DNA of 42,502 nt from Pseudomonadota bacterium (GCA_043820105.1 JBDREC010000049.1:62001-104502), one strand, 5' to 3'; counted from the first letter of the stretch, positions 1,014-16,683 are shown. Made by a program: numbers and translations. Notes: a model not told the origin generated them from the sequence alone.

Positions 1014-1088
1014 GGTGGGTGTAGCTCAGCTGGTTAGAGCATCAGATTGTGGTTCTGAGGGCCGGGGGTTCGAATCCCCTCACTCACC
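1014..1088 (+). tRNA. tRNA-His(GTG), CCA not encoded
   Basis: G-1 (1014) pairs with C1088; acceptor GTGGGTG/CACTCAC; anticodon arm TCAGA-TT GTG GT-TCTGA; T-loop GGTTCGAATCC; followed by TT rather than CCA. Confidence 0.97.
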
Positions 1089-1090
1089 TT

Positions 1091-1136
1091 ATAAAACAAA
1101 AGCCCTGAAGTGGAAACTTTAGGGCTTTTGTTTTAT
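1091..1136. terminator. Intrinsic, probably bidirectional terminator
   Basis: ATAAAACAAAAGCCCT...AGGGCTTTTGTTTTAT perfect 16-bp inverted repeat with extension. Confidence 0.85.
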
Positions 1137-1183
1137 CGTTCAATACTAAAAACCCAAACTCAATACTTCCCTTTCCTATTGAA

Positions 1184-1205
1184 CTTGATTTATAAACTCG
1201 ATCTA
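1184..1205 (+). repeat. CTNGRTCTA direct-repeat doublet (cassette A left end)
   Basis: CTTGATTTA (1184) and CTCGATCTA (1197), 13-bp period; nearly identical to 4344-4364. Confidence 0.65.
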
Positions 1206-1284
1206 AGATTTTGATTTTTATGTGTATTTTTTGAAAGTTATTATTTAAATTTGATAAATAGGCTGTATTTTAAAAAAATACTAT

Positions 1285-1719
1285 TTGGAAAAAGTCTTTA
1301 CGATTTTCAAATTATTTAGTATAGATTGTATTAGAGATGAAAATATTGCAAAAACAATTGTAAAGCTATTCAAAGAACATAATCGCATTTTAATTGTCTA
1401 TGGGGCAGGGCATTTAATTGAGCTGGATAGACTACTTGTTAAAATGCTTGCTAAACCGGTGCTTGAAGTTGCAAATCAATCTAAATTTAACCCAGTAAGT
1501 GATAAAGATTTTAGAAATAATAAAATACATAATAAGAACTACAAAAACAGTTTAATAATCCAAATAAAACAATCTAGCCTAGATATCTTCATCATAAAAA
1601 ACGAGAATAAATATTTTGTTAGGCACTATAAATACTATGATTTATTGGGAAAGAAACTCAATGAGTTTGAATTTGAATCGCTTCGAGAATTAAATGAGGA
1701 TTTGAAAAAGTGGTATTAA
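1285..1719 (+). pseudogene. Probable 5'-truncated TraB/GumN/ChaN-like fragment with unknown C-terminal part
   Basis: RDENIA...ILIVYGAGHL resembles the C-terminal motif of that fold; weak TTG start, N-terminal part missing. Confidence 0.45.
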
Positions 1720-1731
1720 TAAGCTAATTAT

Positions 1732-1818
1732 TTAAGCAGCTAACAATTCAAGCACCTTCCCAATTTCATTATAAACCTCATATCTCAAAAAGTTGCGATA
1801 TTCGTCAACAAGGGGACC
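1732..1818 (-). repeat. att-like scar 1, encodes start-less tail GPLVDEYRNFLRYEVYNEIGKVLELLAA*
   Basis: Shares the ATCTCAAAAAGTTGC core with 4245-4331, 5515-5601 and 15210-15299; open minus-strand frame to TAA. Confidence 0.85.
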
Positions 1819-1830
1819 TTTTTCGTGGTT

Positions 1831-1853
1831 CTAGGTCTAGTTGCTAGGTCTAG
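1831..1853 (+). repeat. Direct-repeat doublet (cassette B left end)
   Basis: CTAGGTCTAG at 1831 and 1844, 13-bp period. Confidence 0.6.
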
Positions 1854-1899
1854 AGCTTATTTCAAATACTTTTCATTATTATTTTAATTTATCTAGAAA

Positions 1900-3027
1900 T
1901 TAAAAAGTAATTTTATATTTTGTTTGAGGGCCTATTCCTAATTTTTGAATGAAAGATTGTTCAAGAAGAATGTTGATTGTATGAATTATTGTTCTTCTAG
2001 GAATACCCGTTGCTTTTTGAATATCATTGGTTGATAGGTTTATTTCAGGATTATCATTGAATGTATTATAAATTTTAAGTTGTGATTCTGTTAGTTTTTG
2101 TAGTTTAATAAATTTTTCATTATAAAAATCAATGTCAGATAGTACAGCTTGCTCAAACATTTTTATATAATATCTTAAAAGAAGTTCAATTTTATATTCT
2201 TTGGGATTTTGTTTAAATTTACCTTCAGAACACTTGCGCAAAATATAATAATATTCACTTTTTGTTTTTTCTATTTGTCTATCAACTGAAATGAATCTAA
2301 TTATTGTTGAAAGGTTTTTGTCAGTATTTTGCAAACAACCGAGAATAAATAAGGCTCTTGAAAGTCTTCCATTTCCATCCTGAAATGGATGAATTGCTAA
2401 AAATCTAAAAATGAATTCTACTAGTACGGTCAAAGCCCAAGGTTGCTCTTTGATTTCATTATTGTACCATGTAAATAAATCATTCATTGCTGAAACTGTT
2501 ATAGGTCCTGGATCTGCTGTTTTTAAAACTTCTGAAACAATTTTTCCATCAAGTCTTTCAACAACATTATTTGGGATAGTTTTATAATTTCCCAGATAAT
2601 ATGATGCTGGAGGATGGTATTGCAAAAGTTCTGAGTGCAATCCTCTTAAGTGATATTCTGATAATGGGAAAATATCTTTTGCCTGCGAAAAAATTATTTC
2701 TAAAACATTTCGAAGGCCAGCTACTTCCTGAATACTTCTTTCTTTGTCTTTTGAAAGCTTTTTTTTAATAAACGTGCTTTTATCTAAGTATGACGTTGTT
2801 TTAGAGTCGCCATTTAAAGTTTCATTAAGCCAATTAATTTCAGTATTTGTTAAAATTGCATTTTCAATTCTGGTGCTAGAACCTAAGGTGCTTATTTTTG
2901 CCATTTTATGAATATATTCTTTGCATTCAATATTCAAAAAATCTAGAAAAACAAGCTTTTGAGTAATTAACTCATTTAATTCCTTGAGTTTTTTGGTATC
3001 TTGATTTGATAAATTATATGAAAGCAT
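1900..3027 (-). CDS. Fic family protein (class II, C-terminal HTH)
   Basis: HPFQDGNGRLSR Fic motif; N-terminal STRIEN inhibitory motif; C-terminal wHTH-like segment (DIQKATGIPRRTI). Confidence 0.92.
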   Translation of the reverse strand: MLSYNLSNQDTKKLKELNELITQKLVFLDFLNIECKEYIHKMAKISTLGSSTRIENAILTNTEINWLNETLNGDSKTTSYLDKSTFIKKKLSKDKERSIQEVAGLRNVLEIIFSQAKDIFPLSEYHLRGLHSELLQYHPPASYYLGNYKTIPNNVVERLDGKIVSEVLKTADPGPITVSAMNDLFTWYNNEIKEQPWALTVLVEFIFRFLAIHPFQDGNGRLSRALFILGCLQNTDKNLSTIIRFISVDRQIEKTKSEYYYILRKCSEGKFKQNPKEYKIELLLRYYIKMFEQAVLSDIDFYNEKFIKLQKLTESQLKIYNTFNDNPEINLSTNDIQKATGIPRRTIIHTINILLEQSFIQKLGIGPQTKYKITF

Positions 3028-3041
3028 AGGATCAGTATATG

Positions 3042-3098
3042 TTATTGCGCATTAATGTGCAATAAAAAAAATAGCATATTGCACATTAATGCGCAGTA
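3042..3098. promoter_or_regulatory. Paired palindromic operators upstream of the Fic gene
   Basis: TTATTGCGCATTAATGTGCAATAA (3042-3065) and TATTGCACATTAATGCGCAGTA (3077-3098). Confidence 0.75.
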
Positions 3099-3304
3099 GA
3101 AATGTGATTGAGAAATATGTAAAAAATACAATGAGTTAGCTCGTTTCATTTTGCTCTGGTGCTACATGTCCAAAGCCAAAAACCCCAAAAGAGGCCCTTT
3201 ACTATATCCAAAAAATAATTTAAAACAATTGGTTAAGAGTTGTCTTGGTTCATTAGATAGAATTGATTAGAATACCAATTTGAAATTTCAAAAAGGAGAA
3301 ACAT

Positions 3305-3646
3305 TTGCTTTCCATTAAAATTAAAGTGATAAAAAATTATACATCGGCTTACCCTAATCCAATCAAAGTTAAATTAAATGAAATGGTTGAAATAAAGGAA
3401 AAAGAAACAGATTGGGAAGGATGGCTTTGGTGCAAAAATAAAAATGATATTGAAGGTTGGGTTCCAGAAAAAATAATAAAAAGAGAAGGCAATATTGGCA
3501 AGGTTTTAAGAGATTATGAAGCCACTGAACTAACTGTTGCAGCTGGCGAGGAATTAATGTTTTTAGAAGAAGAAAGTGGCTGGCTATTTTGTAAAAATTC
3601 CCAAAATCAAAAAGGCTGGGTGCCTGCTGAAAATACTGATTATTAG
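3305..3646 (+). CDS. Tandem SH3-domain protein
   Basis: Two GWxxC...GWVP SH3-like repeats, DYEATELTV; AGGAG RBS. Confidence 0.85.
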   Translation: MLSIKIKVIKNYTSAYPNPIKVKLNEMVEIKEKETDWEGWLWCKNKNDIEGWVPEKIIKREGNIGKVLRDYEATELTVAAGEELMFLEEESGWLFCKNSQNQKGWVPAENTDY

Positions 3647-3703
3647 CCACTTAAAGTGTAACTTTTTAATTAAGCTTTAAAAATATAAATTGGAGAAAGA
3701 ATC

Positions 3704-4129
3704 ATGGAGCCTTTAATTGACCATATTCAAATTACTGTTAAAAATCTTGAGAAAGCAGAAAAATTTTATGATTTATTTCTTCCCCTTCTTGGGTTTGATA
3801 TTATGAAAAAGGGGAAAGGTGAAGTTCCTGAACATGATTTTAAAGTTGTCGAATACTGTCATCCACGCTTATGTTTTGCAATTACATCACCAAGAAAAGC
3901 TTTTGCTGATGATGAAATACATAGAAGAAAACCAGGCTCACTTCATCATTTGGCCTTTAAAGCACAGTCAAGAGATGAAGTAGATAATGTATATAAAGAA
4001 CTTGTCAAAATTGGTGCTATAATTGTAACAGAGCCTAAAGAATACCCAGAATATACACCTCATGGATATTATGCTGTCTATTTTAAAGATATAGAAGGAA
4101 TTAAATATGAAATAGTACATGCACAATAA
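3704..4129 (+). CDS. VOC/glyoxalase family protein
   Basis: IDHIQITV, LHHLAF, YYAVYFKDIEGIKYEIV. Confidence 0.9.
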   Translation: MEPLIDHIQITVKNLEKAEKFYDLFLPLLGFDIMKKGKGEVPEHDFKVVEYCHPRLCFAITSPRKAFADDEIHRRKPGSLHHLAFKAQSRDEVDNVYKELVKIGAIIVTEPKEYPEYTPHGYYAVYFKDIEGIKYEIVHAQ

Positions 4130-4244
4130 TTTAATTATATTAGTTAAGGTTTCAGTAATTTATATTTTGACTGTTAAGTCAGTTCCAAAACCGTCCCCTC
4201 AGCCAATGCTTAAAACTTAATTACAATTTAGAAATAAAATTGGA

Positions 4245-4331
4245 TTAACTAGCCAATAATTCAACAACTTTCCCAATCTCACTATAAACCTCACATCTCA
4301 AAAAGTTGCAAAAGTCGTTTGCAGAGTGACC
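4245..4331 (-). repeat. att-like scar 2, encodes GHSANDFCNFLRCEVYSEIGKVVELLAS*
   Basis: Colinear and gap-free with scar 1 over 87 nt. Confidence 0.85.
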
Positions 4332-4343
4332 TTTTTTTATCCT

Positions 4344-4364
4344 CTTGATCTATAAACCGATCTA
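4344..4364 (+). repeat. Direct-repeat doublet (cassette C left end)
   Basis: CTTGATCTA and ACCGATCTA, 12-bp period. Confidence 0.65.
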
Positions 4365-4367
4365 AAT

Positions 4368-4471
4368 AAGTTATCATACAATATGGTAAATAATAACAGT
4401 AGTATGACAACTTTGTGTTTGACTTCAGTTGTCATACAAGGTATCATGATAGGCATATTGTATGATAACTT
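4368..4471 (+). promoter_or_regulatory. Sigma70 promoter embedded in four GTTRTCATAC operator half-sites
   Basis: Perfect 18-bp IR 4368-4385/4454-4471, perfect 11-bp IR 4402-4412/4427-4437; TTGACT (4419) N17 TATCAT (4442). Confidence 0.8.
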
Positions 4472-4483
4472 TTTGGAAGTTTT

Positions 4484-4804
4484 ATGGGTGTAATAAAATC
4501 GGTTTTAAAAGAAGAGCTTAATAATTATCTTAGTATGAAAAAAAATTACTAAAAGGAACTGAATAAACTACCAAAGGGAAGCTTAATTAAGAAAAAAGTG
4601 AAAGGTCATATCTATTATTATCTAACTTTTCGGGAAGATGGTAATATTAGGCAAATATATAAAGGGAAAACTATTTCTAAGGAAGAGATGAAAAAATACG
4701 AAGAAGCTAAAAAGCTTAGAAAAAAATATAGGATTCTATTATCTAAAGTCAAAAAGCAGATCAAATTTTTAAGGAGTACCTTGCGTGGACAAGAATCAGT
4801 TTAA
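4484..4804 (+). pseudogene. Small basic partner protein of the nucleotidyltransferase, with in-frame TAA at codon 23
   Basis: ATG 4484 is in frame with ORF 4598-4804: MGVIKSVLKEELNNYLSMKKNY*KELNKLPKGSLIKKKVKGHIYYYL; stop at 4550-4552. Confidence 0.75.
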
Positions 4805-5471
4805 TTTATGCAAAGAAGTTTTAATTCGCCTCGAGAACAAGGGTGTCTTAAAGCATGTAATATTAATAGGTAGTTGGTGTTTGCCATTTTATAAAGAGTA
4901 CCTTAAGTCAAATAAATATAATCCTTCTATTAGGACTAGGGATATGGATTTTCTTATTTCTTCTCCAAATAAAATAAAAACAAAGGTTGATATTCCAGAA
5001 ATGCTAAAAGATTTAGGATTTCTGGTTGATATAGGAGGGTCTAAGGGGGTTGTTAGGCTTCAACATCCAGATTTAATGATTGAATTTTTGGTGCCTGAAA
5101 AAGGAAAAGGTACAGACAAGCCATATCCATTACCAATGCTTGGAGTAAATGCTCAAACTATAAGATTTTTAAATTTATTAACTGAAAATACTATTACCAT
5201 TAAAATAAATACTGTAAACTTGATTTTGCCTCATCCTATTAATTGGGCCTTGCAAAAGCTTATAATTTATCAAAGAAGGGGAAGTAAGGATAAAGCTCAA
5301 AAAGATTTTGAAGCAGCGATTGGATTGTTGAAGGCTTTAATCACGAAAGGTGAATCTGAAAATATTATAAATATTTTCAAGTCACAGCCTTTAAGGTGGC
5401 AAAATAAGATAAGAAAAGGACTTGAAAAATCTGAAGAAAGTAAAGTTTTAAAGATATTTATGGAAGCATAA
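4785..5471 (+). CDS. Nucleotidyltransferase-fold protein (GSU2403-like)
   Basis: LIGSW...RTRDMDF Pol-beta-like motif, IEFLVP, QKLII...KAQKD. Confidence 0.8.
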   Translation: MDKNQFNLCKEVLIRLENKGVLKHVILIGSWCLPFYKEYLKSNKYNPSIRTRDMDFLISSPNKIKTKVDIPEMLKDLGFLVDIGGSKGVVRLQHPDLMIEFLVPEKGKGTDKPYPLPMLGVNAQTIRFLNLLTENTITIKINTVNLILPHPINWALQKLIIYQRRGSKDKAQKDFEAAIGLLKALITKGESENIINIFKSQPLRWQNKIRKGLEKSEESKVLKIFMEA

Positions 5472-5514
5472 TTGATGTTAAGCATAAATTTAAATTCAAT
5501 TTTAAATTCTTTGT

Positions 5515-5601
5515 CTAACTGGCTAATATCAAATCAATATTATTAACTTCTCTGAAAGAATTTAATCTCAAAAAGTTGCGATATTCGTCCACTAGGGGGC
5601 C
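5515..5601 (-). repeat. att-like scar 3, encodes GPLVDEYRNFLRLNSFREVNNIDLILAS*
   Basis: First 12 aa identical to scar 1 with only synonymous nucleotide changes. Confidence 0.85.
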
Positions 5602-5602
5602 T

Positions 5603-5646
5603 AAAAAATAAAGCCCTGAAACAAAAGTTTCAGGGCTTTATTTTTT
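5603..5646. terminator. Terminator hairpin homologous to the one after tRNA-His
   Basis: AAAAAATAAAGCCCTGAAAC-AAAA-GTTTCAGGGCTTTATTTTTT; shares AAAGCCCTGAA..AGGGCTTT with 1091-1136. Confidence 0.85.
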
Positions 5647-5656
5647 CCTCTACTTT

Positions 5657-5678
5657 CTCGATCTATTATCTCGATCTT
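5657..5678 (+). repeat. Direct-repeat doublet (cassette D left end)
   Basis: CTCGATCTA (5657) and CTCGATCTT (5670), 13-bp period. Confidence 0.65.
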
Positions 5679-5716
5679 GTTTTTCTTTGTAGCCTAGCTT
5701 CATATGATTGTTGATT

Positions 5717-6139
5717 TTATTTGATTAAATCTAATCTAAATAATCCCCTCTCTTTATGCAATTCAATGGGATTACATTTTCTTGTCATTTTTATAACTTC
5801 TTTGTTTGAAAAGAGCACTTCCCACTCTAAAAAACAATATCCCTTTTGTTTAGCATAGTTCAAACAGTGTAAAAACAGTTTATAACCTAAGCCTTTTCTA
5901 TAGTTCTGTTTTATATACAAGTCTTCTAAGAACAGGATAGGCTTTCCTTTAAAGCTAGAATATTTTGTATACAGGATTGCATAACCTATGTATTCCTCTT
6001 CAATTTTTACAAGAAAAGCTGCATGAAATTTATTAATATCCTTTTTTAAATTTTCTTTAACTTCGTCATTAATTTTCTGTTTCGTTAAATAGATTGAAAA
6101 TTCATCAACTAACTTTATTAATTCAGAAACATTTAACAC
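5717..6139 (-). pseudogene. GNAT acetyltransferase (SSAT-like), 5' end abutting or cut by an IS
   Basis: YSSFKGKPILFLEDLYIKQNYRKGLG; start codon lies at the putative IS end, native N-terminus appears lost. Confidence 0.7.
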
Positions 6140-7425
6140 CGATTTTCACAGTTAAGAAAAACGTCATAGTGGCACCCTAACTAGGCAGTCCAGTTAAACT
6201 CAATAGTTTTATTATCAAGCCAAGGAACTTTGAAAGGAGCTTGTAGTTTATTTACACCAAGCAGAATAGGAGTGTGGGCACGTTTCCTTATTTTTATTAT
6301 AAATTTATTGCCATCATAAACTACTTTACCCGGCATATCGATAAATTTTCTAAATATTGTTGGTGCAAGTTCTTTTTCAAAACGTCTTAAATCCTTTGCA
6401 AATATGTGATACAAAGTATCAGCTATCATTGTCCATAGAATATCAAAATGTATTCTTATCATTATTGGAGATGATAAAGCATTTAAATTAAAAAAAGCGA
6501 CCAGCTCTGATAATTTATTTTCAATTCTCCAGCGTTTTGCATAGACTTCTAATATATCCTTGATTGATAGTTTATTGTTGTTAGTAATTACATATGTTGG
6601 CTTCTTGCGACCATGATCCTTGATTGTAATTTGACGAAACTCATTGTGACACCCTGCTAACAGCACTTTTTCTTCATAAATGGAAACCTTTTTATATTTC
6701 CTTTTGGGAATATTAACAAATGCTTTCTGCCATTTCTTTTTTGCAATCCTTTGAGTCGATTCCAATAAAGATGCATTTCTTTTTCTTAAAGTAATGAATT
6801 TAACATGATCATCTGCAAGTTCATCTAATGTCCCATAGCTTGTAAACTTGCAGTCGAAAACAAGTGTTTCATTAACTTTTCTTTTCTTAATTTTCTTCCA
6901 AAAAGAAACAAATTTTTTGACCTCATTTGATTCTTCACTGCGTAAAATATCTGCTCTTGTATATAAAACAGCATTGCTTTTGCTATCCTGAGCAAAAACA
7001 GATGTTGCCCCTTTTAATGTTTTACCCCTTGAGCCACACCATATCTTTTCCATTTCTGATTCTTCACCATAATGAGGAATAGAATGAAAATCTAAATTGA
7101 TAAATTCACTATCATAAAATCTAGGATATTGCTTTTTTAATTGAGCTAAAATCTTTTCTTGTAAATTCATTAAGTCAGCTTCTGACATACGACATGAATA
7201 GGTGCCCATATAAGTAGATTTTGGCAAGACATTCAAAGATGCAAAAGTACCTAAACCTATTTCTTTATCAAATGCTCCGATATGGCTTAATCTTTTATTT
7301 CCAATCAGTTTGAGAAGTAGCATAGACAAACAGGCATTTATTGATCCAATTTCACTTGATTCAGGAAGCTTACATTTTTTTACAATATCCAAAATGCCTG
7401 ATTCTATAATATAAGGGAGGAATAT
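6139..7425 (-). mobile_element. Truncated IS with DDE transposase (IS4/IS1380-like); coding part 6181-7425 lacks its N-terminus
   Basis: DFHSIP, FDCKF, YAKRWRIENKL (YREK-like); frame extends to IFLPYIIESGILD then TAG at 7426-7428; putative end CCGATTTTCACAG at 6139. Confidence 0.8.
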
Positions 7426-7443
7426 CTATGACGAAGATAATTT
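7424..7443 (+). repeat. Single inverted copy of the 11439-11522 transposon-end repeat
   Basis: ATCTATGACGAAGATAATTT is the reverse complement of the AAAGTTACCTTCGTCATAGA-type units. Confidence 0.7.
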
Positions 7444-7591
7444 AATTTATTGACTTGCAGCTATTTGCTTATATTTAGTGGAGAATTTTGTTGAGGTACT
7501 AGGTTAAATAAACAGTTTATTGTTGTTTTATGGTTCAATACTGCGGAGTTTAGTAATGTTGTTTTTTAGCTAAGTGATCAAGAGTTTAGTG

Positions 7592-7828
7592 CTAGTGGCG
7601 ATAAGCTATATCAAACTTTTTTAAATTCTCAAGAGTTACAATACTGGAAACTTTTTTTCTAATGACATTAAACAAGTCTTCTATAGATCTAGATATTTCA
7701 TTTTGAGATTCTTTTTTCCATATATCAGAAAGTTTCTGGCCTGGATGACATACTTTAAAGAATGTTGCTCCTGCTTCTAAGCTTGCTTTTCTTTCAGAAT
7801 TAGCATCTCCAAAAACGAATATTTCAAA
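7592..7828 (-). pseudogene. 3' fragment of a HAD-family hydrolase
   Basis: Start-less frame EIFVFGDANSERKASLEAGATFFKV...RH* resembles the HAD motif IV region. Confidence 0.6.
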
Positions 7829-8002
7829 TTATAATCTCATAAACAGTTTTTCAGAATTTGTAATCCAGTTTCTGGAATCTGGAATTCGTTAATTATTAAA
7901 GCGATATATAAGCTCTTCATATTATTAGGATTGAAGGTATCGGTATAGTTCTTGCAGTAATCTATTTTTTTTATAGCAATTTATTAATAAAAGGAAACTA
8001 AC

Positions 8003-8644
8003 TTGAAATCAGAAAAGATTGAAATTGATATCGATTTTAGAGAAAGAAAAACAAATTTAATAGATATATTAAAAGAAAAATATAAATTTGATGTAAAAGA
8101 AAAGTTCTTAAAAATTGGAGATTATTGTATCGGAAATCGAATTATCATTGAAAGAAAGACCTGTAAAGATTTTATAGTATCTATAATTGATGGGCGACTT
8201 TTTAATCAAGCAAGTTTATTGAAAAATTCGAATCAGCTTTGTCTCTTTATTATAGAAGGAGAAGGGCTTTATAATACAGGTTTAGAGATGAGCAATAATT
8301 CAATAAATGGTGCATTAATCAGCTTATCTTTATTCTGGCAAATTCCAATATTGTTTACTAAGGATATTTATGAAACAGCATTATTTTTAAATTTAATTGC
8401 TTCCCAATATTATGTTGAAGTAAATGACATATCCTTTCGACCTGGAAGAAAGCCTAAGGGTAAGCGAAAAAGACAATTATATATTTTACAGGGCTTGCCA
8501 AATATTGGTCCTAAGTATGCTAATAAATTATTGGATCATTTTGGTTCTGTTGAACAGGTTTTTACGGCATCTGTTGATGATTTAAAGAGTATTGACGGAC
8601 TTGGGAAAAAAAGAGCAGAAAAGATTAAGGAGATTATTTCATGA
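8003..8644 (+). CDS. ERCC4/XPF-family nuclease with C-terminal helix-hairpin-helix
   Basis: IDFRE, GDY...ERKTCKDF catalytic motif, LPNIGPK and IDGLGKKRA HhH motifs. Confidence 0.9.
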   Translation: MKSEKIEIDIDFRERKTNLIDILKEKYKFDVKEKFLKIGDYCIGNRIIIERKTCKDFIVSIIDGRLFNQASLLKNSNQLCLFIIEGEGLYNTGLEMSNNSINGALISLSLFWQIPILFTKDIYETALFLNLIASQYYVEVNDISFRPGRKPKGKRKRQLYILQGLPNIGPKYANKLLDHFGSVEQVFTASVDDLKSIDGLGKKRAEKIKEIIS

Positions 8645-10563
8645 TAGAGAGCAAACTTAAAGAACATTTCGGATTAAATAATTTTTTACAAGGTCAAAAA
8701 GAAGTAATTGAATTGATTGTAAAAGGTGAATCAGCTGGAGCGATATTTCCAACTGGAGCAGGTAAATCCTTGTGCTATCAATTGTCAGCAGTGCTTTTAC
8801 CAGGAATAACCTTGGTTGTTTCACCACTTTTATCCTTAATGAAAGATCAAATTGAATTTTTACAACGCAAGAATATTAAGGCAGCAAAACTTGACTCAAC
8901 ACTAACAAAGGAAGAGTATAATAAAGTTTTAAATGATGCTAAGACGGGTCAAATTAAAATATTAATTATATCTGTTGAGCGATTTAAAAATGAACGGTTT
9001 CGAATTCAACTTAAACAAATGCAAATTTCATTGTTGGTTGTGGATGAAGCTCATTGCATTTCAGAATGGGGACATAACTTTCGTCCAGATTATTTAAAGA
9101 TTCCATATTATAAATCAGAATATAACATTGAACAAATATTACTCTTAACAGCTACTGCTACACCAAAAGTAACGACTGATATGTGTGATAAATTTAAAAT
9201 CCCAATGGAACATATTGTTATAACAGGTTTTTATCGAGAAAATTTATTTCTAAAAGTTAGAGCTATAGATGCTGATGAAAAAGAAAGCTTAGTGCTAGAT
9301 ATAATTAGTAAAAATCCAGATGACTCGACAATTGTATATGTAACATTGCAAAAGACAGCTGAGGAAGTAGCACATTTTTTGATAAATCAGGGATATAAAG
9401 CTTTGCCATATCATGCAGGTATGGATAATGCAGAACGAGAATTAGTTCAAAATAAATTTATGGATGGAAGTGCTTCAATAATAGTAGCAACAATTGCATT
9501 TGGAATGGGAATAGATAAAAAAGATATAAGAAAAGTTGTTCATTATGATTTACCTAAGTCCATTGAAAACTATAGTCAAGAAATTGGTAGAGCTGGACGA
9601 GATGGCTTGCATGCCCAATGTGAAGTTTTAGCAAATTTAGATAATGTAACTGTTCTTGAAAATTTTATTTATGGGGATACTCCAGAAAAAGTATCTATTG
9701 AAAAATTTGTAAAAAAGATAAAAAACTGTGAATCAGATTTATTAGAAATAAAAGAATATTCATTATCTTATGAGCTTAATATTAGAATGCTTCCTCTTAA
9801 AACATTATTAGTTTATTTAGAAATAAAAAATATCATTAAATCTAAATTTACATATTTTGAAGATTATGAATTTAAATATTTAAAGGAATCTTCTGACATT
9901 GTTAAGGAATTTATTGGAGAAAGAAAAAGGTTTGTAAAAAACATCTTTGAGCATTCTGAAACAGCAAAAATATGGACAAAACCTGATTTTAATAAAATTA
10001 ATAAAAGTTATAAAGTAGACAGAGAAAGGATCATTAAAGCTCTTGAATATTTTGATGAAAAAGGATGGATTGAACTTAGAGCTAGAAAATCAGTTGATGT
10101 TTATGAGATTCTTAATAAAGGATTTGAGGTTTGCAAGTTAAGCAATAGTCTTTTTAATATATTCAAAGAAAAAGAAGAAAATGAAATAAATAGAATTTCT
10201 AATATGATTCAATTTTTTGAGTCAGATGCATGTTTAAGCAATTCTCTTTCGTTATACTTTGGTGAAACAATAAATAAAAGATGCAATCATTGTTCCTTCT
10301 GCGAAAATGGTAAGATTCGATTGCAATATTCTAGCGAATTGAAACCATTGTTAGATATTTATTTTAAAGATTTGATTCGTGATTTGTTAAAAGAAACGCA
10401 GAATTATAGTTTGTCAAATCTTACGATAACAAAGTTTTTATGTGGAATTAATACACCTTTTATTAGTAGAATGAAATTAAGTAAAATTAATGGATATGGA
10501 AGTTTGAAAAACTACCCATTCCTAGAGGTAAAGAGTTTAGTAGAGAAAGAATTCCATAGATAA
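8641..10563 (+). CDS. recQ: RecQ family ATP-dependent DNA helicase (no HRDC domain evident)
   Basis: PTGAGKSLCYQ, DEAHCISEWGHNFRPDY, ATIAFGMGIDK, QEIGRAGRDG, Zn-binding C..CNHCSFC; ATGA overlap with the ERCC4 gene. Confidence 0.93.
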   Translation: MIESKLKEHFGLNNFLQGQKEVIELIVKGESAGAIFPTGAGKSLCYQLSAVLLPGITLVVSPLLSLMKDQIEFLQRKNIKAAKLDSTLTKEEYNKVLNDAKTGQIKILIISVERFKNERFRIQLKQMQISLLVVDEAHCISEWGHNFRPDYLKIPYYKSEYNIEQILLLTATATPKVTTDMCDKFKIPMEHIVITGFYRENLFLKVRAIDADEKESLVLDIISKNPDDSTIVYVTLQKTAEEVAHFLINQGYKALPYHAGMDNAERELVQNKFMDGSASIIVATIAFGMGIDKKDIRKVVHYDLPKSIENYSQEIGRAGRDGLHAQCEVLANLDNVTVLENFIYGDTPEKVSIEKFVKKIKNCESDLLEIKEYSLSYELNIRMLPLKTLLVYLEIKNIIKSKFTYFEDYEFKYLKESSDIVKEFIGERKRFVKNIFEHSETAKIWTKPDFNKINKSYKVDRERIIKALEYFDEKGWIELRARKSVDVYEILNKGFEVCKLSNSLFNIFKEKEENEINRISNMIQFFESDACLSNSLSLYFGETINKRCNHCSFCENGKIRLQYSSELKPLLDIYFKDLIRDLLKETQNYSLSNLTITKFLCGINTPFISRMKLSKINGYGSLKNYPFLEVKSLVEKEFHR

Positions 10564-10600
10564 AAATTGCTATTGTGTTAATTAATTAAACAAGAAAGAA

Positions 10601-11359
10601 TTAATCAAATTTTTCTTGATCTTCGATTTCATCCTTTCCGTTTTTATCATAATCAATAATTTCAATTTTATCTGAATAATACCATTCAAACATGTCTCGT
10701 CTAAGCTTTGCCATACATGTTTGGCCTTGTTCTTTTCTTTTTAGATTGTAAAATATTACACCTTCAGCGAAAACTTTTTCGTCTAATCCTTTTTTTGATG
10801 CAATTTTTGTGAACAACCTTGAATGGAGCCAATCTTTAAACCATGAACTCCAATTATCAAAATTTCGTTCATGATCATGAAATGACTTGTATCGAAGATG
10901 GTTAATTGCTTTTTCAAATGGATACCATAAGTGTTGATCAAGTTTATACGGATTGCCTTGAACTTTTGGACCTATGAGTTCCCCTGCTTGTTCACCATTT
11001 AATTCTACATATCCTTTATCTATTGATTGAAAAATGCCCTCTATAATAAAAGTTTTGCCTTTCATTATTTGAAGTGGGTCAATAACATTAAGTCTGTTTT
11101 GACAAGCAATAAGTCTTCCATTTTCTGTTAGAATTTTAACATTTGTTCCATCAAGTTTTTCAACAGCAAAAGTGTCAGGATCTTCAAAAACCCATTCATA
11201 ACCAGGATTAATTTTGTTAACTGCTAGATAAACCTCTGGACTTCGAAGTTTTAATTGACTTCCATGTTTTTTTAAATGGTCTCTATTTACTTTAAATGTT
11301 TGCCGTATAAATGGGCATTGAAGTTTGGGAAAATCTGATAATCTTGCTTGTTGTTCCAT
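10601..11359 (-). CDS. RNA ligase family protein (RLIG1/DUF5565-like)
   Basis: EKLDGTN motif I, GELIGPKVQGNPY, EGVIF, MAKLRRDMF; ATG 11359 preceded by GGAGG. Confidence 0.75.
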   Translation of the reverse strand: MEQQARLSDFPKLQCPFIRQTFKVNRDHLKKHGSQLKLRSPEVYLAVNKINPGYEWVFEDPDTFAVEKLDGTNVKILTENGRLIACQNRLNVIDPLQIMKGKTFIIEGIFQSIDKGYVELNGEQAGELIGPKVQGNPYKLDQHLWYPFEKAINHLRYKSFHDHERNFDNWSSWFKDWLHSRLFTKIASKKGLDEKVFAEGVIFYNLKRKEQGQTCMAKLRRDMFEWYYSDKIEIIDYDKNGKDEIEDQEKFD

Positions 11360-11438
11360 GGTATTTAACCTCCAAACGATTAAGGTGCTAAAAAAATTAT
11401 ACATTATCAAGGTTTTTAAAATTTGCAACAAATCATAA

Positions 11439-11522
11439 AGAAAAGTTGTACCATCGTCATTAGAAAAGTTACCTTCGTCATAGAAAGTCTAGCATAGAAA
11501 GTCTCCTTCGTCATAGATGACA
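11439..11522 (+). mobile_element. Probable transposon end with 3-4 tandem ~20-bp transposase-binding repeats, ending TGACA
   Basis: AAAGTTGTACCATCGTCATTAGA, AAAGTTACCTTCGTCATAGA, AAGTCTAGCATAGA, AAGTCTCCTTCGTCATAGA then TGACA (5'-TGT on minus strand). Confidence 0.65.
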
Positions 11523-11648
11523 GATCTATGTTTAGGATAATATCTTTTTTTTAGTAAAACTAGTTCTGTTTATAAAAAACAAAATATGGTTATTTCAATT
11601 TTAGGATTCTAGGGGAAATGAGATTACATTTAGGATAATAGCTTTTAT

Positions 11649-12176
11649 TTAAAATTCTTCCTGATCATTTTCATCAAGAATTATTCTTCCCAGTTCATCT
11701 TTATGAACTTTGGTGATACCAGGATTGGTTTTTTCTATATCATCAAATAATTTATTTAATTTTTTCATACTATTGGTTAAAATTCTATTTTTTAAAATTA
11801 TCGTTTTATATTCTAAAGCTCGTTTAACAGCTATTCTTATTTCATCTTTTTCCCAAGGTTTAAGCATAAACATATATAAAACAGCCCTGTTAACGGCATC
11901 AACTGCCATTTGAAGGTCAGCGTTTCCTGTTAATAAAATGCTGGGAATATCTGGATAATTTTTTGATACAATTTCTAGAAAATCAATCCCTGACATTCAT
12001 GGCATTTTAAAATCTGAGATTATTAGATCTATCTTTGGGTTATTATCAATAATTTCTAAGGCTTTTTCACCACTTTCAGCTTTAATAATTGAATAATTCT
12101 CATCATTTAATGTTCTTTCTAAAGTTTTTAAAACATATTCTTCATCATCTACCAATAATATTTTATAATTTGGCAT
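11649..12176 (-). pseudogene. Receiver-domain response regulator with in-frame TGA
   Basis: ATG 12176 MPNYKILLVDDE...IISDFKMP*MSG; TGA at 11997-11999 replaces Gly of MPGMSG. Confidence 0.85.
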
Positions 12177-12190
12177 ATTTTTTCCTTTCT

Positions 12191-14224
12191 TTAAAGAGGT
12201 AATGTAATAGTAAAACTTGTTCCCTGACCTTCTTGGCTTTCTACAATTATTTCTCCACCATGCTTTTTAATAATTTCAAAACTTATACTCATACCAAGAC
12301 CTGTGCCTTTACCTGTTTCTTTCGTTGTGAAAAATGGTTCAAAAATTTTATCAATGTTTTCCTTTTTAATGCCTGATCCAGTGTCCTTAATTAAAATCAT
12401 TACATTCTTATTGTTTGCCCAGGTTTTAATATTAATTGTGCCTTTGTCTGTTATAGATTGAGATGCATTAACTAGAAGATTTAAAAAGACTTGGCCTAGT
12501 TGCTGAGGGTTGCAGTTAATATTTGGAAAATTGCCATAATCCTTTTTAAGTTCAGCTTTATATTTTATTTCGTTCCAACAGATTTTTAGAACGGATTCTA
12601 AGATGTCATTTATATTAGCTTCAGACATTATATTCTCATCTTTTCTTGAAAAAGTATTTAATTCTTTTATTATTTTAGAAATCCTTTCAACGCCTTCCAT
12701 AGACTCATTAATCATATCATCCAAATCTACTAGAATGTCTTTAAAATCAATTTTATGGTAATGTTTTATAATTTCTTCTTGAATTTTATCAATTTCTATT
12801 TTGTGTTTATTTTCAAATGAATCTTTTAATTCATTATATTTTAACATTATTTTAAAAATACTTTGTGTGTGTTCTTTTAAAATTGAAATATTATTTTTAA
12901 CAAATGCCAAGGGATTATTAATTTCATGGGCTACACCTGAAGCTAATTGTCCAATTGCTGCTAGTTTTTCAGATTGGAGCAGTTTTGACTGAGTCTCTTT
13001 TATTTTATCATCAGCCAACTTCTTCTTGATAGTTATTGCTAGAACATTTGATAAAGCATTAAGAAGATCAACTTCTCTTTTATTATATTCATGCCCCTCT
13101 TTAAGATAGAGATTTAAAACACCTAACACATCATCTTCTATTTTTATTGGCATACAATAATGGCCATGATTAACGATTCCATCATAAGTAATGTCATGAC
13201 TACTATCTAAATTGCTTCGATAAACCAGTTCTCTTGATTTAGCTGCTCTACCACACAAACAAGTACCAAAATCAACTTCTTTACATACAGTTAATAAAGC
13301 ATTGTTTAAATTAGATTGGGCAATCATTTTTAATTTGTTTTCATTTGGTTTTAAAAGAAAAATAGCACCTTTTTCTTCAACTGAAAACCAGTGTGTATTT
13401 ATTATTTTTTCAAGAATCTTTTGCAAAGTTTCCTTTAAAGAAAGAGTGTCAATTGAAATCAGGAGAATCTGATTTATTAGATCTCCAGCCAGATTGCTCC
13501 TTTCAAGGGTATCCTGTGTATCCTTGATATGAGTAACCATTGAATTAAAGGCTCCAGCTAACTCGCCAATCTCATCTTTCGATCTTATTTTTATCATATG
13601 ATCAAATTTACCCTGTCCAGTTTTTTTAACAGAGATTAACAATTCACGTAATGGATTTGTTATTGCACTTGAAAAAAAGAATGCAGCTATAATACCTAAA
13701 ATAAAAATCAAAGCCACAATAAGGATTAAAGTAGTTGTTAAATAAAAAATATTTTTATAAATATTTTCTTGAGAGAATCCAATGTGAATTTGCCCTAAAT
13801 TCCCATCAGATATTAATGCAATAATGTGAAGTGCTCTTTCATTATTAGCTAATATTTCTTGGCTATAAGGGGATTTTTTTTCTTTGTCGAATTGAATATT
13901 GCCCAAATCGGCAGGGAAACCATCAGTAAAAGTATGTGAAATAATTTTATCTTTTTCATTTTTAATAAAAATATATTCTATTTCAGGATCAGATTCTTTA
14001 ATATCAATAATATCCATTTTTAATTTAACGCGATTTTCTGTTAAAATTGGATTAACAACCATCTCGGATGCATGAGTAGTAATAAATTCGCATTTTTCTA
14101 AAAGTTCTATTTTATAATATTTAAGGAGAGTTGTGTGAACAAAAATGATCACTGCTGTTCCCAGGATTGTAACAAGCAATGCAGCCCCTAGTAGGATTTT
14201 TATTCTTAAATTAATATTTTTCAT
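12191..14224 (-). CDS. Sensor histidine kinase (2 TM, HAMP, GAF, HisKA, HATPase)
   Basis: DEIGELA HAMP, CLCG GAF, AHEINNP H-box, NLLVNA, DTGSG, FFTTK, GTGLG. Confidence 0.93.
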   Translation of the reverse strand: MKNINLRIKILLGAALLVTILGTAVIIFVHTTLLKYYKIELLEKCEFITTHASEMVVNPILTENRVKLKMDIIDIKESDPEIEYIFIKNEKDKIISHTFTDGFPADLGNIQFDKEKKSPYSQEILANNERALHIIALISDGNLGQIHIGFSQENIYKNIFYLTTTLILIVALIFILGIIAAFFFSSAITNPLRELLISVKKTGQGKFDHMIKIRSKDEIGELAGAFNSMVTHIKDTQDTLERSNLAGDLINQILLISIDTLSLKETLQKILEKIINTHWFSVEEKGAIFLLKPNENKLKMIAQSNLNNALLTVCKEVDFGTCLCGRAAKSRELVYRSNLDSSHDITYDGIVNHGHYCMPIKIEDDVLGVLNLYLKEGHEYNKREVDLLNALSNVLAITIKKKLADDKIKETQSKLLQSEKLAAIGQLASGVAHEINNPLAFVKNNISILKEHTQSIFKIMLKYNELKDSFENKHKIEIDKIQEEIIKHYHKIDFKDILVDLDDMINESMEGVERISKIIKELNTFSRKDENIMSEANINDILESVLKICWNEIKYKAELKKDYGNFPNINCNPQQLGQVFLNLLVNASQSITDKGTINIKTWANNKNVMILIKDTGSGIKKENIDKIFEPFFTTKETGKGTGLGMSISFEIIKKHGGEIIVESQEGQGTSFTITLPL

Positions 14225-14226
14225 AT

Positions 14227-15180
14227 CTAATGAGAACTTTCATTTTTTTGCATAATAAATGATTCCATTTCACGAATCGAATTGTAAGCTGAATCTTCAA
14301 TAATAACAAATTTATCAATAAGCATATTATCTAATATCTTTTTTCCATTTATATCGTTATGCATATTTAAAAATAAATCTTTTAACTTGTTTTTTAAGTT
14401 TTTATCAAAGTTTGGACGAATTATAACAGGTGGGATACCATATGGATCTGATTTTTTGATAATCCTTGTTTTTGATGTGTATTTAGGATCTTTCCGAGAA
14501 GCATATTCCCAAATAAGGCTATCTACAGCTGCAGCATCAATAATCCCTTCAGCTACAGCTTGAATCGATTTATCGTGAGCATAAGTATAGGTGAATTCTT
14601 TGAAATATGATTTTGGTGTCTGGCCCATTTTAGCCAACATATAAGTTGGAACTAATTTGCCCGTATTAGACATAGGATCGGTGAAGGCAAAACTTTTACC
14701 TTTAAGTTCACTAAAATTTTTTATCAGACTATTTTTATTAACTATTATATAAGAGTAATAAACAGTTTCTCCAAAAGCTTGGGGAGCAACAAGTAGCTCC
14801 ATCCCAAATTCGTCATGCCCGTCAACATATGGTTTTCCGCAGACAAATGCCAAATCAATTTGTTTATTTAAAACGAGATTATTAACATCCTTATAATTTT
14901 CTCTTTCTATAAGTTTTACAGGACGTTCAAGTTTTTCCCCGATATAATCCACCAACTGTCGATAAAACGCATATCCTTGTTTCGGTGTTATCATTGATCC
15001 AATGGCAATTTTAATCGGTTCTAATTTATTAAAAGGTTTGCTCTCTTGTTTTATGATTTCTCTTTTACTTAGGTCAATTTTCTTAACATTTTTATTTTTA
15101 TCACAATTTGTCAGTAATAAAATAAATAACATTAATTGAAAAATAAGATGCTTTTTATTTAGACTCATATTAATACCCAT
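14227..15180 (-). CDS. PhnD-fold oxyanion-binding lipoprotein, AioX/ArrT-like
   Basis: LTNC lipobox, DLAFVCGKPYV, FAFTDPMSNTG, AHDKSI; directly upstream of a kinase with no ABC permease or ATPase. Confidence 0.8.
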   Translation of the reverse strand: MGINMSLNKKHLIFQLMLFILLLTNCDKNKNVKKIDLSKREIIKQESKPFNKLEPIKIAIGSMITPKQGYAFYRQLVDYIGEKLERPVKLIERENYKDVNNLVLNKQIDLAFVCGKPYVDGHDEFGMELLVAPQAFGETVYYSYIIVNKNSLIKNFSELKGKSFAFTDPMSNTGKLVPTYMLAKMGQTPKSYFKEFTYTYAHDKSIQAVAEGIIDAAAVDSLIWEYASRKDPKYTSKTRIIKKSDPYGIPPVIIRPNFDKNLKNKLKDLFLNMHNDINGKKILDNMLIDKFVIIEDSAYNSIREMESFIMQKNESSH

Positions 15181-15209
15181 TTAATTTATTATTTAATAAA
15201 GTATAAATA

Positions 15210-15299
15210 TTATGAAATATTTAGATAATATTCAATCAATTTTGTGTTAATGTGAGGTTCACATCTTAAAAAGTTGCGAAACTTGTCCACGGAGTCACC
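15210..15299 (-). repeat. att-like scar 4, encodes GDSVDKFRNFLRCEPHINTKLIEYYLNIS*
   Basis: ACATCTTAAAAAGTTGCGA core; terminal TCCACGGAGTCACC matches tRNA-His end TCCCCTCACTCACC at 10 of 14 positions. Confidence 0.8.
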
Positions 15300-15367
15300 C
15301 TTGCTAGTCCAGTGGATTAAAAAAAAATATCCCCTTATCTAATACTAGCTAGGGGGATTATATTTTT

Positions 15368-16060
15368 TCAAATTAATCTAAATATATAAATAAGTGAATA
15401 ATAAATGCCTACTAAGATAAATACAATGCCTGTGATTTTTCTTGCCCAAATTTCAAACAAGGATATTTTATTAAAAATCTTACTGATTGATTTTGAACCA
15501 AAAGCTATTAATACTGCAAATACAATCACAGGAATGGAAGTGCCAATTCCATAAAATAGAGGCAGCAAAAGTCTTGAGTTTTCTTTAATAGCAAGGGGTA
15601 TTAAACCGCCAAAGAATAGTCCAGCTGATACGGGACAAAAGGATAGAGCGAATAAAATTCCAATAAAAAATGATCCTGATATTCCATGTTTTTTAATTTT
15701 ATTTTGGAAAGTGCTTGAGATATTTAATCCAGGAAGAGATAATTTTATTAATTCTAAAAGAATCATTCCAGCAATAATCAGAATAGGTCCTAAAAGCATA
15801 TTCATATATGTTTGTAAAAATTGGGCTAATTGTGAAGATGACATTATGGATGTAACAATTACGGTGCAAATTAAAATATAAGTAAGTGACCTGCCAATTG
15901 AATAGAAAATCCCAGAAAGAAGAACTATCAGTTGATTCTTAAAGTCTTTGCTTATGTATGTGATGGCTGCGATATTTGTGGCTAATGGGCATGGGCTTAT
16001 TGATGTTAAAATGCCAAGCCATAGAGCATAAAATATTGCAATATTTGTTAAAGTTGTCAT
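15368..16060 (-). CDS. arsG: ArsG-like membrane protein (CcdA/DsbD-type)
   Basis: SISPCPLATN and SFCPVSA Cys pair; gene context. Confidence 0.75.
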   Translation of the reverse strand: MTTLTNIAIFYALWLGILTSISPCPLATNIAAITYISKDFKNQLIVLLSGIFYSIGRSLTYILICTVIVTSIMSSSQLAQFLQTYMNMLLGPILIIAGMILLELIKLSLPGLNISSTFQNKIKKHGISGSFFIGILFALSFCPVSAGLFFGGLIPLAIKENSRLLLPLFYGIGTSIPVIVFAVLIAFGSKSISKIFNKISLFEIWARKITGIVFILVGIYYSLIYIFRLI

Positions 16061-16683
16061 TTAATTAAAAACTTTTCTGTTTCATTTTTAATGTATTTTA
16101 CAAACTCTTCTTTATTTCGTACAAACTCCCAAATGCGATCAAGATTTTCCCATTTAAGTTCTTTATCATCTTTCAATTTTGATAATACAAAAGATTTTGT
16201 ATTAAGTTTGTAATCTTGAATGAAGTGTTTGTTTTCAAGTTCATCTACATTTAATGTTGAAAATATGAGCTTTCCATCTGCTATATCTTTTGAAAAATAA
16301 GTTGTGATAGTTTCATTGATATACTTTTCCATTGTTTTGCAAGTTTTGCACCTAATTGTAGTGTGAAAGTAATATGCTTTAACGCCAGTAAAAGATATTT
16401 TATCTATCATTAGTTCATTTTTAGTTTCTTTGAAAGCTTCACTTGGGATCACTTTTACTTCTTTAGTTTCTTTGAAAGCTTCACTTTGGATGATTTTTAC
16501 TTCTTTAGTTTCTTTTAAAGCTTCACTTGGGATCATTTTTACTTCTTTAGTTTCTTTTAAGACTTCATTTGGGATCACTTTCACTTCAATTTCATTAGAT
16601 GTTCTTTCTTTTAAAATAATAAAGATCAGGCTAAGTCCAACAAAAAGAAGTAAAAATATTGTAATAATATTTTTAATAGTCAC
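16057..16683 (-). CDS. arsF: ArsF-like CxxC protein with a repeat linker
   Basis: YYFHTTIRCKTCKTME, N-terminal TM anchor. Confidence 0.72.
   Translation of the reverse strand: MTIKNIITIFLLLFVGLSLIFIILKERTSNEIEVKVIPNEVLKETKEVKMIPSEALKETKEVKIIQSEAFKETKEVKVIPSEAFKETKNELMIDKISFTGVKAYYFHTTIRCKTCKTMEKYINETITTYFSKDIADGKLIFSTLNVDELENKHFIQDYKLNTKSFVLSKLKDDKELKWENLDRIWEFVRNKEEFVKYIKNETEKFLIK
16420..16587. repeat. 4 x 42-bp in-frame tandem repeat inside arsF
   Basis: Unit TTTAGTTTCTTTGAAAGCTTCACTTGGGATCACTTTTACTTC, encoding EVKVIPSEAFKETK. Confidence 0.93.

Follow-up and report, generated by a model that had tools for sequence, protein, structure and literature searches.

A possible accretion array of decayed, recombinase-less integrative elements with unusual ends at a tRNA-His gene

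Integron arrays and integrase-less attC clusters consist of same-orientation sites placed between unrelated cargo, and very little identity is needed there for crossover. In staphylococci, the composite islands of the staphylococcal cassette chromosome (SCC) at rlmH (orfX) contain tandem recombinase-less pseudo-elements, whose repeats are derived from the 3' end of the gene. Accretion of decayed elements that retain both attL and attR is a documented process (PMC5704250, PMC3146451). In the ICESt1/ICESt3 family of Streptococcus thermophilus, integrative and conjugative elements (ICEs), integrative and mobilizable elements (IMEs) and cis-mobilizable elements (CIMEs) accrete in tandem, with later arrivals integrating into the resident site (PMC5704250). 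The ssrA islands of Dehalococcoides carry 20-bp ssrA direct repeats; 16 of these islands bear, adjacent to attL, a module for a CcrB-like serine integrase, and some others that have no integration module were proposed to be cis-mobilizable (PMC3146451). Here we describe a tandem array of four recombinase-less units that starts at the 3' end of the tRNA-His gene in a stretch of 42,502 nucleotides, referred to as the window, from an assembly labelled Pseudomonadota bacterium (GCA_043820105.1, JBDREC010000049.1:62001-104502); all positions are counted from the first nucleotide of the window. The window is the final 42.5 kb of contig C49 in this assembly of 3.81 Mb (113 contigs, 32% GC, 92.9% complete). 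With modest confidence, we lean towards tandem accretion of decayed, recombinase-less integrative elements of the cis-mobilizable type at the tRNA-His 3' end, with the crossover near ACC/T.

The right end of each block is formed by a repeat of about 87-92 nt that always lies in the same orientation on the plus strand, namely e1 (1732-1818), e2 (4245-4331), e3 (5515-5601) and e4 (15213-15299). The core of this repeat, ATCTYAAAAAGTTGC, has exactly four matches in the window at up to two mismatches (positions 1782, 4295, 5565 and 15263, all on the plus strand); shuffled sequences gave a mean of 0.88 matches, and one of 100 shuffles reached four. A repeat search of the window returned three copies of 92 nt and four copies of 32 nt, in register. 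Meanwhile, an nhmmer profile built from the four copies and run against the whole assembly found only these four (E values of 4.9e-21 to 1.7e-17), the next best match having an E value of 2.8. An earlier reading of this DNA, made by a model from the letters alone and called the sequence-only reading below, had reported four same-orientation elements, and all of them were recovered by core matches, repeat search and profile, with the start of e4 moved from 15210 to 15213. The scatter of the motif across the genome that would have spoken against that reading was not seen in the profile scan. When ATCTYAAAAAGTTGC was searched assembly-wide at 0-1 mismatch, the four copies and one sequence on contig C39 were found; the latter, about 1.2 kb from a Y1 gene, lies within an unrelated coding frame and was discarded.

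The e copies share 60-78% identity in pairwise comparison, and the identity is mosaic: e1 and e3 are 92% alike over the right 37 nt and 44% alike over the left 50 nt. This mosaicism points to different members of one element family and not to recent local duplication. Single-strand DNA folding of the four elements on both strands (8 folds, z of -0.4 to -2.4) revealed no hairpin that is common to all copies or that spans the element. A small hairpin 9 nt before the e end is weak, and its register varies among the four copies. No consistent terminator or promoter was found in the e copies.

On its left, the array is anchored by the tRNA-His (GTG) gene (B arm) at 1014-1089 on the plus strand (ARAGORN; Rfam 66 bits); of 44 tRNA/tmRNA genes in the assembly, it is the only one for tRNA-His. 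G-1 is encoded and CCA is not; the residues A71-C72-C73 occupy 1086-1088, with the discriminator C73 at 1088. All e copies terminate in (A/G)CC in register with C73, as ACC at 1816-1818 (e1), ACC at 4329-4331 (e2), GCC at 5599-5601 (e3) and ACC at 15297-15299 (e4). This edge is followed by C in e4 and by T in the other three copies and the tRNA. The right edges thus line up with the tRNA-His 3' end as had been proposed; the letters of the four-letter edges given earlier (ACCT, ACCT, GCCT and ACCC) are also correct, but they reach one base beyond the end coordinates that went with them. A known RNA family was rejected as the identity of the elements, as the tRNA alone passed the threshold in an Rfam search and the sub-threshold matches fell on hairpins.

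A second conserved module, which is new in this analysis, lies right of the tRNA, e1, e2 and e3 and forms the left end (LE) of each block. LE1 (1090-1206, plus strand) consists of a 42-nt hairpin at 1093-1134 and then a direct 7-mer pair at 1187-1206, and LE2 (1819-1853, plus strand) of a T-run followed by the pair GGTCTAG/GGTCTAG at 1834-1853. LE3 (4332-4365, plus strand) has a T-run, CCTCT and the pair GATCTAT/GATCTAA at 4347-4365, and LE4 (5602-5679, plus strand) has a terminator-like 42-nt hairpin (5603-5646), CCTCT and a 7-mer pair at 5660-5679. The hairpin at 1093-1134 and the one at 5604-5645 are 74% identical (local-alignment z 4.6; none of 200 shuffles was as good). This homology between LE1 and LE4 begins 0-3 nt past the junction, and the 42-nt hairpin precedes the 7-mers both after the tRNA and after e3. 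In both units without this hairpin, the distance from the junction to the 7-mers is 16 nt. Hairpins were found near the start of LE1, LE2 and LE4, two of the LE hairpins being terminator-like. The stretches 1184-1207 and 4344-4366 agree at 22 of 23 aligned bases (z 4.3). The CCTCT box is confined to the LE of blocks 3 and 4; block 1 has a looser CCTAT-type stretch, and block 2 has none.

The 7-mer pair follows the pattern G[AG]T[CT]T[AT][ATG] in direct orientation, 12-13 bp apart, and is present in all four flanks (starts at 1187, 1834, 4347 and 5660). This pattern has eight plus-strand matches in the window, five of which fall in the four flanks, no minus-strand match, and 215 matches genome-wide on both strands (chance 0.003 per 110 nt), and tRNA-His alone among the tRNA/tmRNA genes has it within 400 nt downstream; these statistics are indicative only, as the pattern was defined after the flanks had been seen. 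No LE module or 7-mer pair was detected in the e4 flank after 15299, so that the array ends at this position. The flank at 15300-15367 (plus strand), which runs into the 3' end of a DsbD_2 cluster, is the candidate original chromosomal side (B'), and the absence of LE there is expected if this is so. The units are therefore bounded by related left and right sites in direct order (four e and four LE). An LE to the right of the tRNA and of e1-e3, and none after e4, would be predicted if units had been inserted serially and site-specifically at one anchor. The accretion at the tRNA terminus proposed in the sequence-only reading is thus likely and has been strengthened by the LE module. Xer-dependent integrative elements (IMEX) have a 28-bp dif-like site, in which a 6-bp centre separates two 11-bp arms, at their unit boundaries; inspection of e and LE by eye, against a consensus that may not be that of the host, gave no XerD-arm-like word.

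A serial process might have produced this arrangement. Members of one element family would have integrated one after another and site-specifically at the tRNA-His 3' end, and the integrated units would then have decayed to the recombinase-less state while keeping LE and e. Each unit would comprise an LE (T-run, CCTCT in some, 7-mers one helical turn apart, hairpin in units 1 and 4) and an e of about 87 bp. In such a scheme, tRNA/LE1 would be an attL-type junction in which the tRNA end takes the place of e, e4/flank would be an attR-type junction, and the inner junctions e(i)/LE(i+1) would be attP-like composite sites. Comparison of the outer with the inner junctions places the exchange point about 0-4 nt from the boundary ACC/T, at the discriminator C73. 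The array would have been made by a recombinase, either one supplied in trans or one since lost as the elements decayed. The sole ground for favouring a tyrosine integrase is the tRNA target. A unit might still be mobile at present.

The elements delimit head-to-tail blocks of unrelated cargo, as confirmed by annotation of open reading frames (ORFs) and profile matches, and the blocks measure 0.73, 2.5, 1.27 and 9.7 kb, in agreement with the rounded values given earlier (about 0.7, 2.5, 1.3 and 9.7 kb). The cargo is overall as described in the sequence-only reading, with some corrections. Block 1 contains only a 144-aa ORF (1285-1719, plus strand), which is a C-terminal fragment of a TraB/PrgY/GumN-like gene according to Pfam and NCBI-type profile matches (PF01963 positions 217-251 of 263, E 0.007; TIGR00261 positions 180-251 of 380). 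Block 2 encodes a SoFic-like Fic protein (1900-3027, minus strand), a tandem-SH3 protein (3305-3646, plus strand) and a VOC/glyoxalase-fold protein (3704-4129, plus strand). The nucleotidyltransferase pair ascribed to block 3 turned out to be one GSU2403-family nucleotidyltransferase (4785-5471, plus strand) and a small ORF (4484-4804, plus strand) that has a TAA in frame and overlaps the nucleotidyltransferase gene. The cargo of block 4 spans 5717-15180 on both strands and includes GNAT, nuclease, helicase, RNA-ligase-like and PhnD-like binding protein genes together with a two-component part (response regulator and GAF/HAMP histidine kinase). It also includes an IS4-like DDE transposase (6181-7392; single-copy at the nucleotide level in the assembly), which the earlier description did not mention. 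Broken cargo was evident in the block 1 gene fragment, in the frames interrupted by TAA and TGA, respectively, and in an inserted insertion sequence (IS). As a whole, the cargo is typical accessory or defence-type material that is partly broken.

Several of these genes show features of their own. Two adjacent 22-nt palindromic boxes, mutually 95% complementary and operator-like, lie upstream of the Fic gene at 3043-3098. Upstream of the block 3 ORFs, at 4365-4474, nested inverted repeats (21 nt at 95% and 11 nt at 100%) are likewise operator-like. The TAA of the small ORF in block 3 is at codon 23. Homologues of the neighbouring nucleotidyltransferase are 52-61% identical to it, and those with a named source come from several phyla. 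This gene pair looks like an autoregulated pair of the toxin-antitoxin type with a damaged first gene. In block 4, the region 8003-10563 encodes a stand-alone XPF/Hef-type nuclease (ERCC4 and HhH2), the best NCBIfam match of which is the C-terminal part of archaeal Hef. The nuclease gene is translationally coupled to that of a RecQ-family helicase, which also matches the DpdF and PsyrT defence models; this region may be a defence or repair module. The RNA-ligase-like gene lies convergent and downstream of this pair, and tandem repeats of about 19-21 nt in 2-3.6 copies are located just upstream of it at 11433-11517. The response-regulator gene (11649-12176, minus strand) is interrupted at 11997-11999 by an in-frame TGA within its receiver-domain motif, between KMP and MSG. 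Its two halves otherwise form one continuous frame; the genome has tRNA-SeC, and the other long ORFs are normal under table 11. Probably, either the assembly is wrong here or the gene is a pseudogene.

No tyrosine or serine recombinase was detected in the 40 ORFs of the window scanned with Pfam (four larger ORFs at 36.9-40.5 kb were left out), and the genome scans gave no match of PF00589 or PF00239 on contig C49. The statement of the sequence-only reading that the window encodes no site-specific recombinase holds to this extent. The 16 kb upstream of the window likewise contained no recombinase (Pfam, 10 ORFs). Inside the units there are no integrase or transfer genes, and the sole transposase is the IS4-like DDE gene of block 4. 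Elsewhere in the assembly, contig C67 (9.7 kb) carries two divergent tyrosine recombinases of about 385 aa and contig C100 (6.8 kb) a 559-aa serine recombinase; both contigs may be unplaced mobile elements. Further recombinases of this genome are one of 378 aa on contig C6 and an Xer-type pair. Weak partial matches to the first 120 or so positions of the phage-integrase profile occur in open frames of 1961-1976 aa at C64:45673, C27:6902 and C10:95358.

A number of observations weigh against accretion of this kind. Classical tRNA-targeting integrases leave a repeat of at least 15 nt. Here, the stretch common to the tRNA end and the e copies is ACC only, and a duplicated target-gene end, which marks cis-mobilizable elements and accretion arrays, is not present within the sites. 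The claim that the sites are neither attC nor tRNA duplications is thus upheld, there being no attC-type fold either. Over the last 14 nt, e4 has 10 matches to the tRNA, e2 and e3 have 7 each and e1 has 6 (counted by eye), and the 10/14 likeness of e4 is not significant without ACC. No cognate recombinase was identified: the 11 matches of PF00589 and the one match of PF00239 in the genome are all on other contigs, and neither e- nor LE-like ends were found on the recombinase contigs C67, C97 and C100. The post hoc definition of the 7-mer pattern belongs here as well. The codon-usage distance of the cargo is inside the genome's own range and gives no hint of recent foreign origin, and part of block 4 (9.7 kb) may be native chromosome. 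A signal of foreign composition was accordingly rejected, the GC profile being equally unremarkable. The native codon usage implies that the array is old, or was exchanged within the lineage.

Searches for relatives of e point in the same direction. Exact-pattern scans for e-like sequence gave one match in 185,579 species genomes and one in 241 million metagenome records, each in an unrelated coding frame, and two IMG/VR scans gave zero and one chance match. These chance coding matches, in a bioA-like gene, a leucine-rich-repeat protein and a phage ORF, were set aside. BLAST searches found no e in plasmid and phage collections, and a sequence-only covariance model applied to all four genomes of the phylum returned the window's own copies only. 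Since these searches gave no e-like sequence from other loci, an empty site, an alternative cassette order and an autonomous relative are all lacking for comparison. The host phylum has just four species-level genomes in the reference set and is thus a sparsely sampled lineage. In the three nearest genomes TrxB is 47-51% identical and its gene has no adjoining tRNA-His; in the sole relative where tRNA-His was found, it lies within a four-tRNA cluster.

Other explanations were weighed on the same evidence. Each e copy contains an open frame on the minus strand, and the fact that this frame is shared is new in this analysis. It remains open from the junction over 28-29 codons, and the stops that close it align with one another (to within one codon for e4); in e1 the open stretch extends over 32 codons up to the stop at 1732-1734. 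It is the sole frame of six without a stop in all four copies, it begins exactly at the recombination boundary, and its peptide has an invariant NFLR motif and conserved hydrophobic positions. These features would be expected if e were the substitute 3' end of a protein-coding gene G, the family integrating 28 codons before the stop and bringing a replacement tail, as ICESt3 does at fda and SCC elements do at rlmH; the array would have formed at G and then been moved or rearranged, or tRNA-His would be a secondary site. However, a given frame is free of stops in about 25% of 84-nt stretches drawn at random from the genome, and the differences between e1 and e2 at codon positions 1, 2 and 3 (5, 7 and 7, counted by eye) show no third-position enrichment. 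No gene body is present right of e4, where the DsbD_2 gene ends 68 nt on, and the leftmost junction is the tRNA itself and not an old gene tail. No protein with an e-like tail was found in the host genome (regex and hidden Markov model, 69,585 six-frame ORFs), and 60 other genomes yielded only three weak matches of the e peptide (E 0.13 to 0.67). Two word-index searches of a 5.8-billion-protein index returned no longer protein with an e tail, the e-peptide profile had no match at E <=0.001 among 1.84 billion representative proteins, and the peptides matched nothing in Pfam and PHROGs. A look-alike at window position 32219, antisense within a peptidase gene, was attributed to chance, and a recombinase C-terminus was rejected as the source of the peptide after none of eight recombinases resembled it. 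We consider this explanation unlikely, though it deserves to be kept in view; in another host, the family may have carried a gene tail from which e descends, and this would be a rival or an addition to accretion at the tRNA. That the elements are immobile, being either local cis elements (terminator, operator or regulator sites) or relics of old local rearrangements, is a rather unlikely alternative. It would agree with the native codon usage, the missing recombinase, the lack of copies elsewhere in public data and the two terminator-like LE hairpins, but an 87-bp element with both edges kept and one orientation, paired on its right with LE, whose place at the first junction is taken by the tRNA end, is difficult to account for as a regulatory one. 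Moreover, e contains no consistent terminator or promoter, and the neighbouring genes vary in strand and function.

The geometry of a true integron-like platform would be identical to that of the accretion reading: e+LE would be the analogues of attC, the tRNA end would be attI, and an unlinked dedicated recombinase would shuffle the cassettes. The very short core identity recalls attI x attC recombination, and the GNAT, VOC and toxin-antitoxin-like genes resemble the cassettes of chromosomal integrons. The features by which integrons are recognised were nevertheless all lacking, namely an adjacent integrase gene, attC-type R''-L''/L'-R' palindromes and single promoterless ORFs in one orientation. 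No intI lies beside the array or on contig C49, the sites have no attC-type folded structure, and there are only four units, which are multi-gene and mixed in strand and have regulatory palindromes of their own. Single-ORF cassettes are further contradicted by the three genes on both strands in block 2, the palindromic operator region of block 3 and the 9.7 kb of block 4. Hence, a true integron-like platform seems improbable to us, and the "integron-like" label of the sequence-only reading was dropped: the locus has no intI/attI platform and no shared folded hairpin, and its blocks are multi-gene, of mixed orientation and up to 9.7 kb long. Very improbable, in our judgement, is that the blocks are HUH single-strand passenger elements (IS200/IS605- or IS91-like) mobilised by a Y1 transposase encoded elsewhere, which would insert 3' of a short word xACC recreated by their own right end (RE), so that new copies stack behind old ones. 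The ends are not mutual inverted repeats, long flanking duplications are missing and the shared "target" is about 3 nt, all of which would suit such elements, as would the small hairpin 9 nt before the e end, the hairpins near the starts of LE1, LE2 and LE4, and the 13 Y1_Tnp matches in the genome. Yet the hairpin in e is weak, with inconsistent register and the modest fold scores given above; the LE and RE hairpins are dissimilar, unlike those of IS200/IS605; no e- or LE-like end occurs outside the locus, whether near a Y1 gene or elsewhere; and the blocks reach 9.7 kb.

As to the genomic setting, trxB (19-942) is the first gene of the window and tRNA-His comes next. The 16 kb to the left of the window contain housekeeping genes (an rlmE-like methyltransferase gene, thrS, rplL20, thrC and thrB, after which trxB opens the window); the left side therefore belongs to the core chromosome. 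Past e4 come a DsbD_2 / thioredoxin / ArsP-permease / ArsR cluster and then ordinary genes. ORF 16057-16683 (minus strand), which lies between the genes for DsbD_2 and the thioredoxin-like protein, encodes a 208-aa protein without a Pfam match. At 16420-16587, this ORF contains a 42-nt unit repeated four times in tandem (91% matches), which encodes a 14-aa repeat.

Recombinase-less arrays at tRNA genes show how genomes retain accessory genes after the vehicle has decayed. Since the sites do not copy the tRNA, island finders that seek tRNA-fragment repeats plus an integrase would miss this locus. Any cognate enzyme would recognise arms that are long and dissimilar together with a minimal core, and this bears on recombinase specificity; if there is none, the locus would be a clean fossil record of four successive insertions. 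It is decidedly unlikely, in our estimate, that a new kind of tRNA-anchored cassette platform is at work here, in which a site of about 125 bp (e+LE) recombines with the tRNA-His end over about 3 nt of identity by means of an unlinked recombinase. Were it so, small multi-gene cassettes for defence, toxin-antitoxin and repair functions could be captured, stacked and exchanged without an enzyme of their own.

Compared with integrons as they are generally known, the locus has the same arrangement of same-orientation sites that separate unrelated accessory cargo, but it contains no intI, no attI or cassette promoter (Pc) platform and no attC-type imperfect palindrome. The open minus-strand frame in e matches the gene-3'-end-derived repeats of the SCC islands; the SCC target, however, is an intact protein-coding gene, whereas here no such gene lies beside the array and the anchor is a tRNA. 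The array resembles CIMEs in that integration and transfer genes are gone, both recombination sites are kept and the units form a head-to-tail stack at one target (PMC5704250). According to the same report, sites of the ICESt1/ICESt3 type hold a clear repeat of the target-gene end and an integrase-bearing relative is known (PMC5704250). In contrast, the overlap with the target is here about 3 nt, the arms measure 87 bp (e) and 35-120 bp (LE), and no autonomous relative was found. The array also differs from the ssrA islands of Dehalococcoides in having no tRNA repeat, no integration module in any unit and small units of 0.7-9.7 kb. With those islands (PMC3146451) it shares tandem units downstream of a single-copy tRNA-like gene and a zone of about 85 bp of extra conservation round each boundary, one motif of which fails to align with the target gene. 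Taken together, the locus looks like a known kind of structure with unusual ends.

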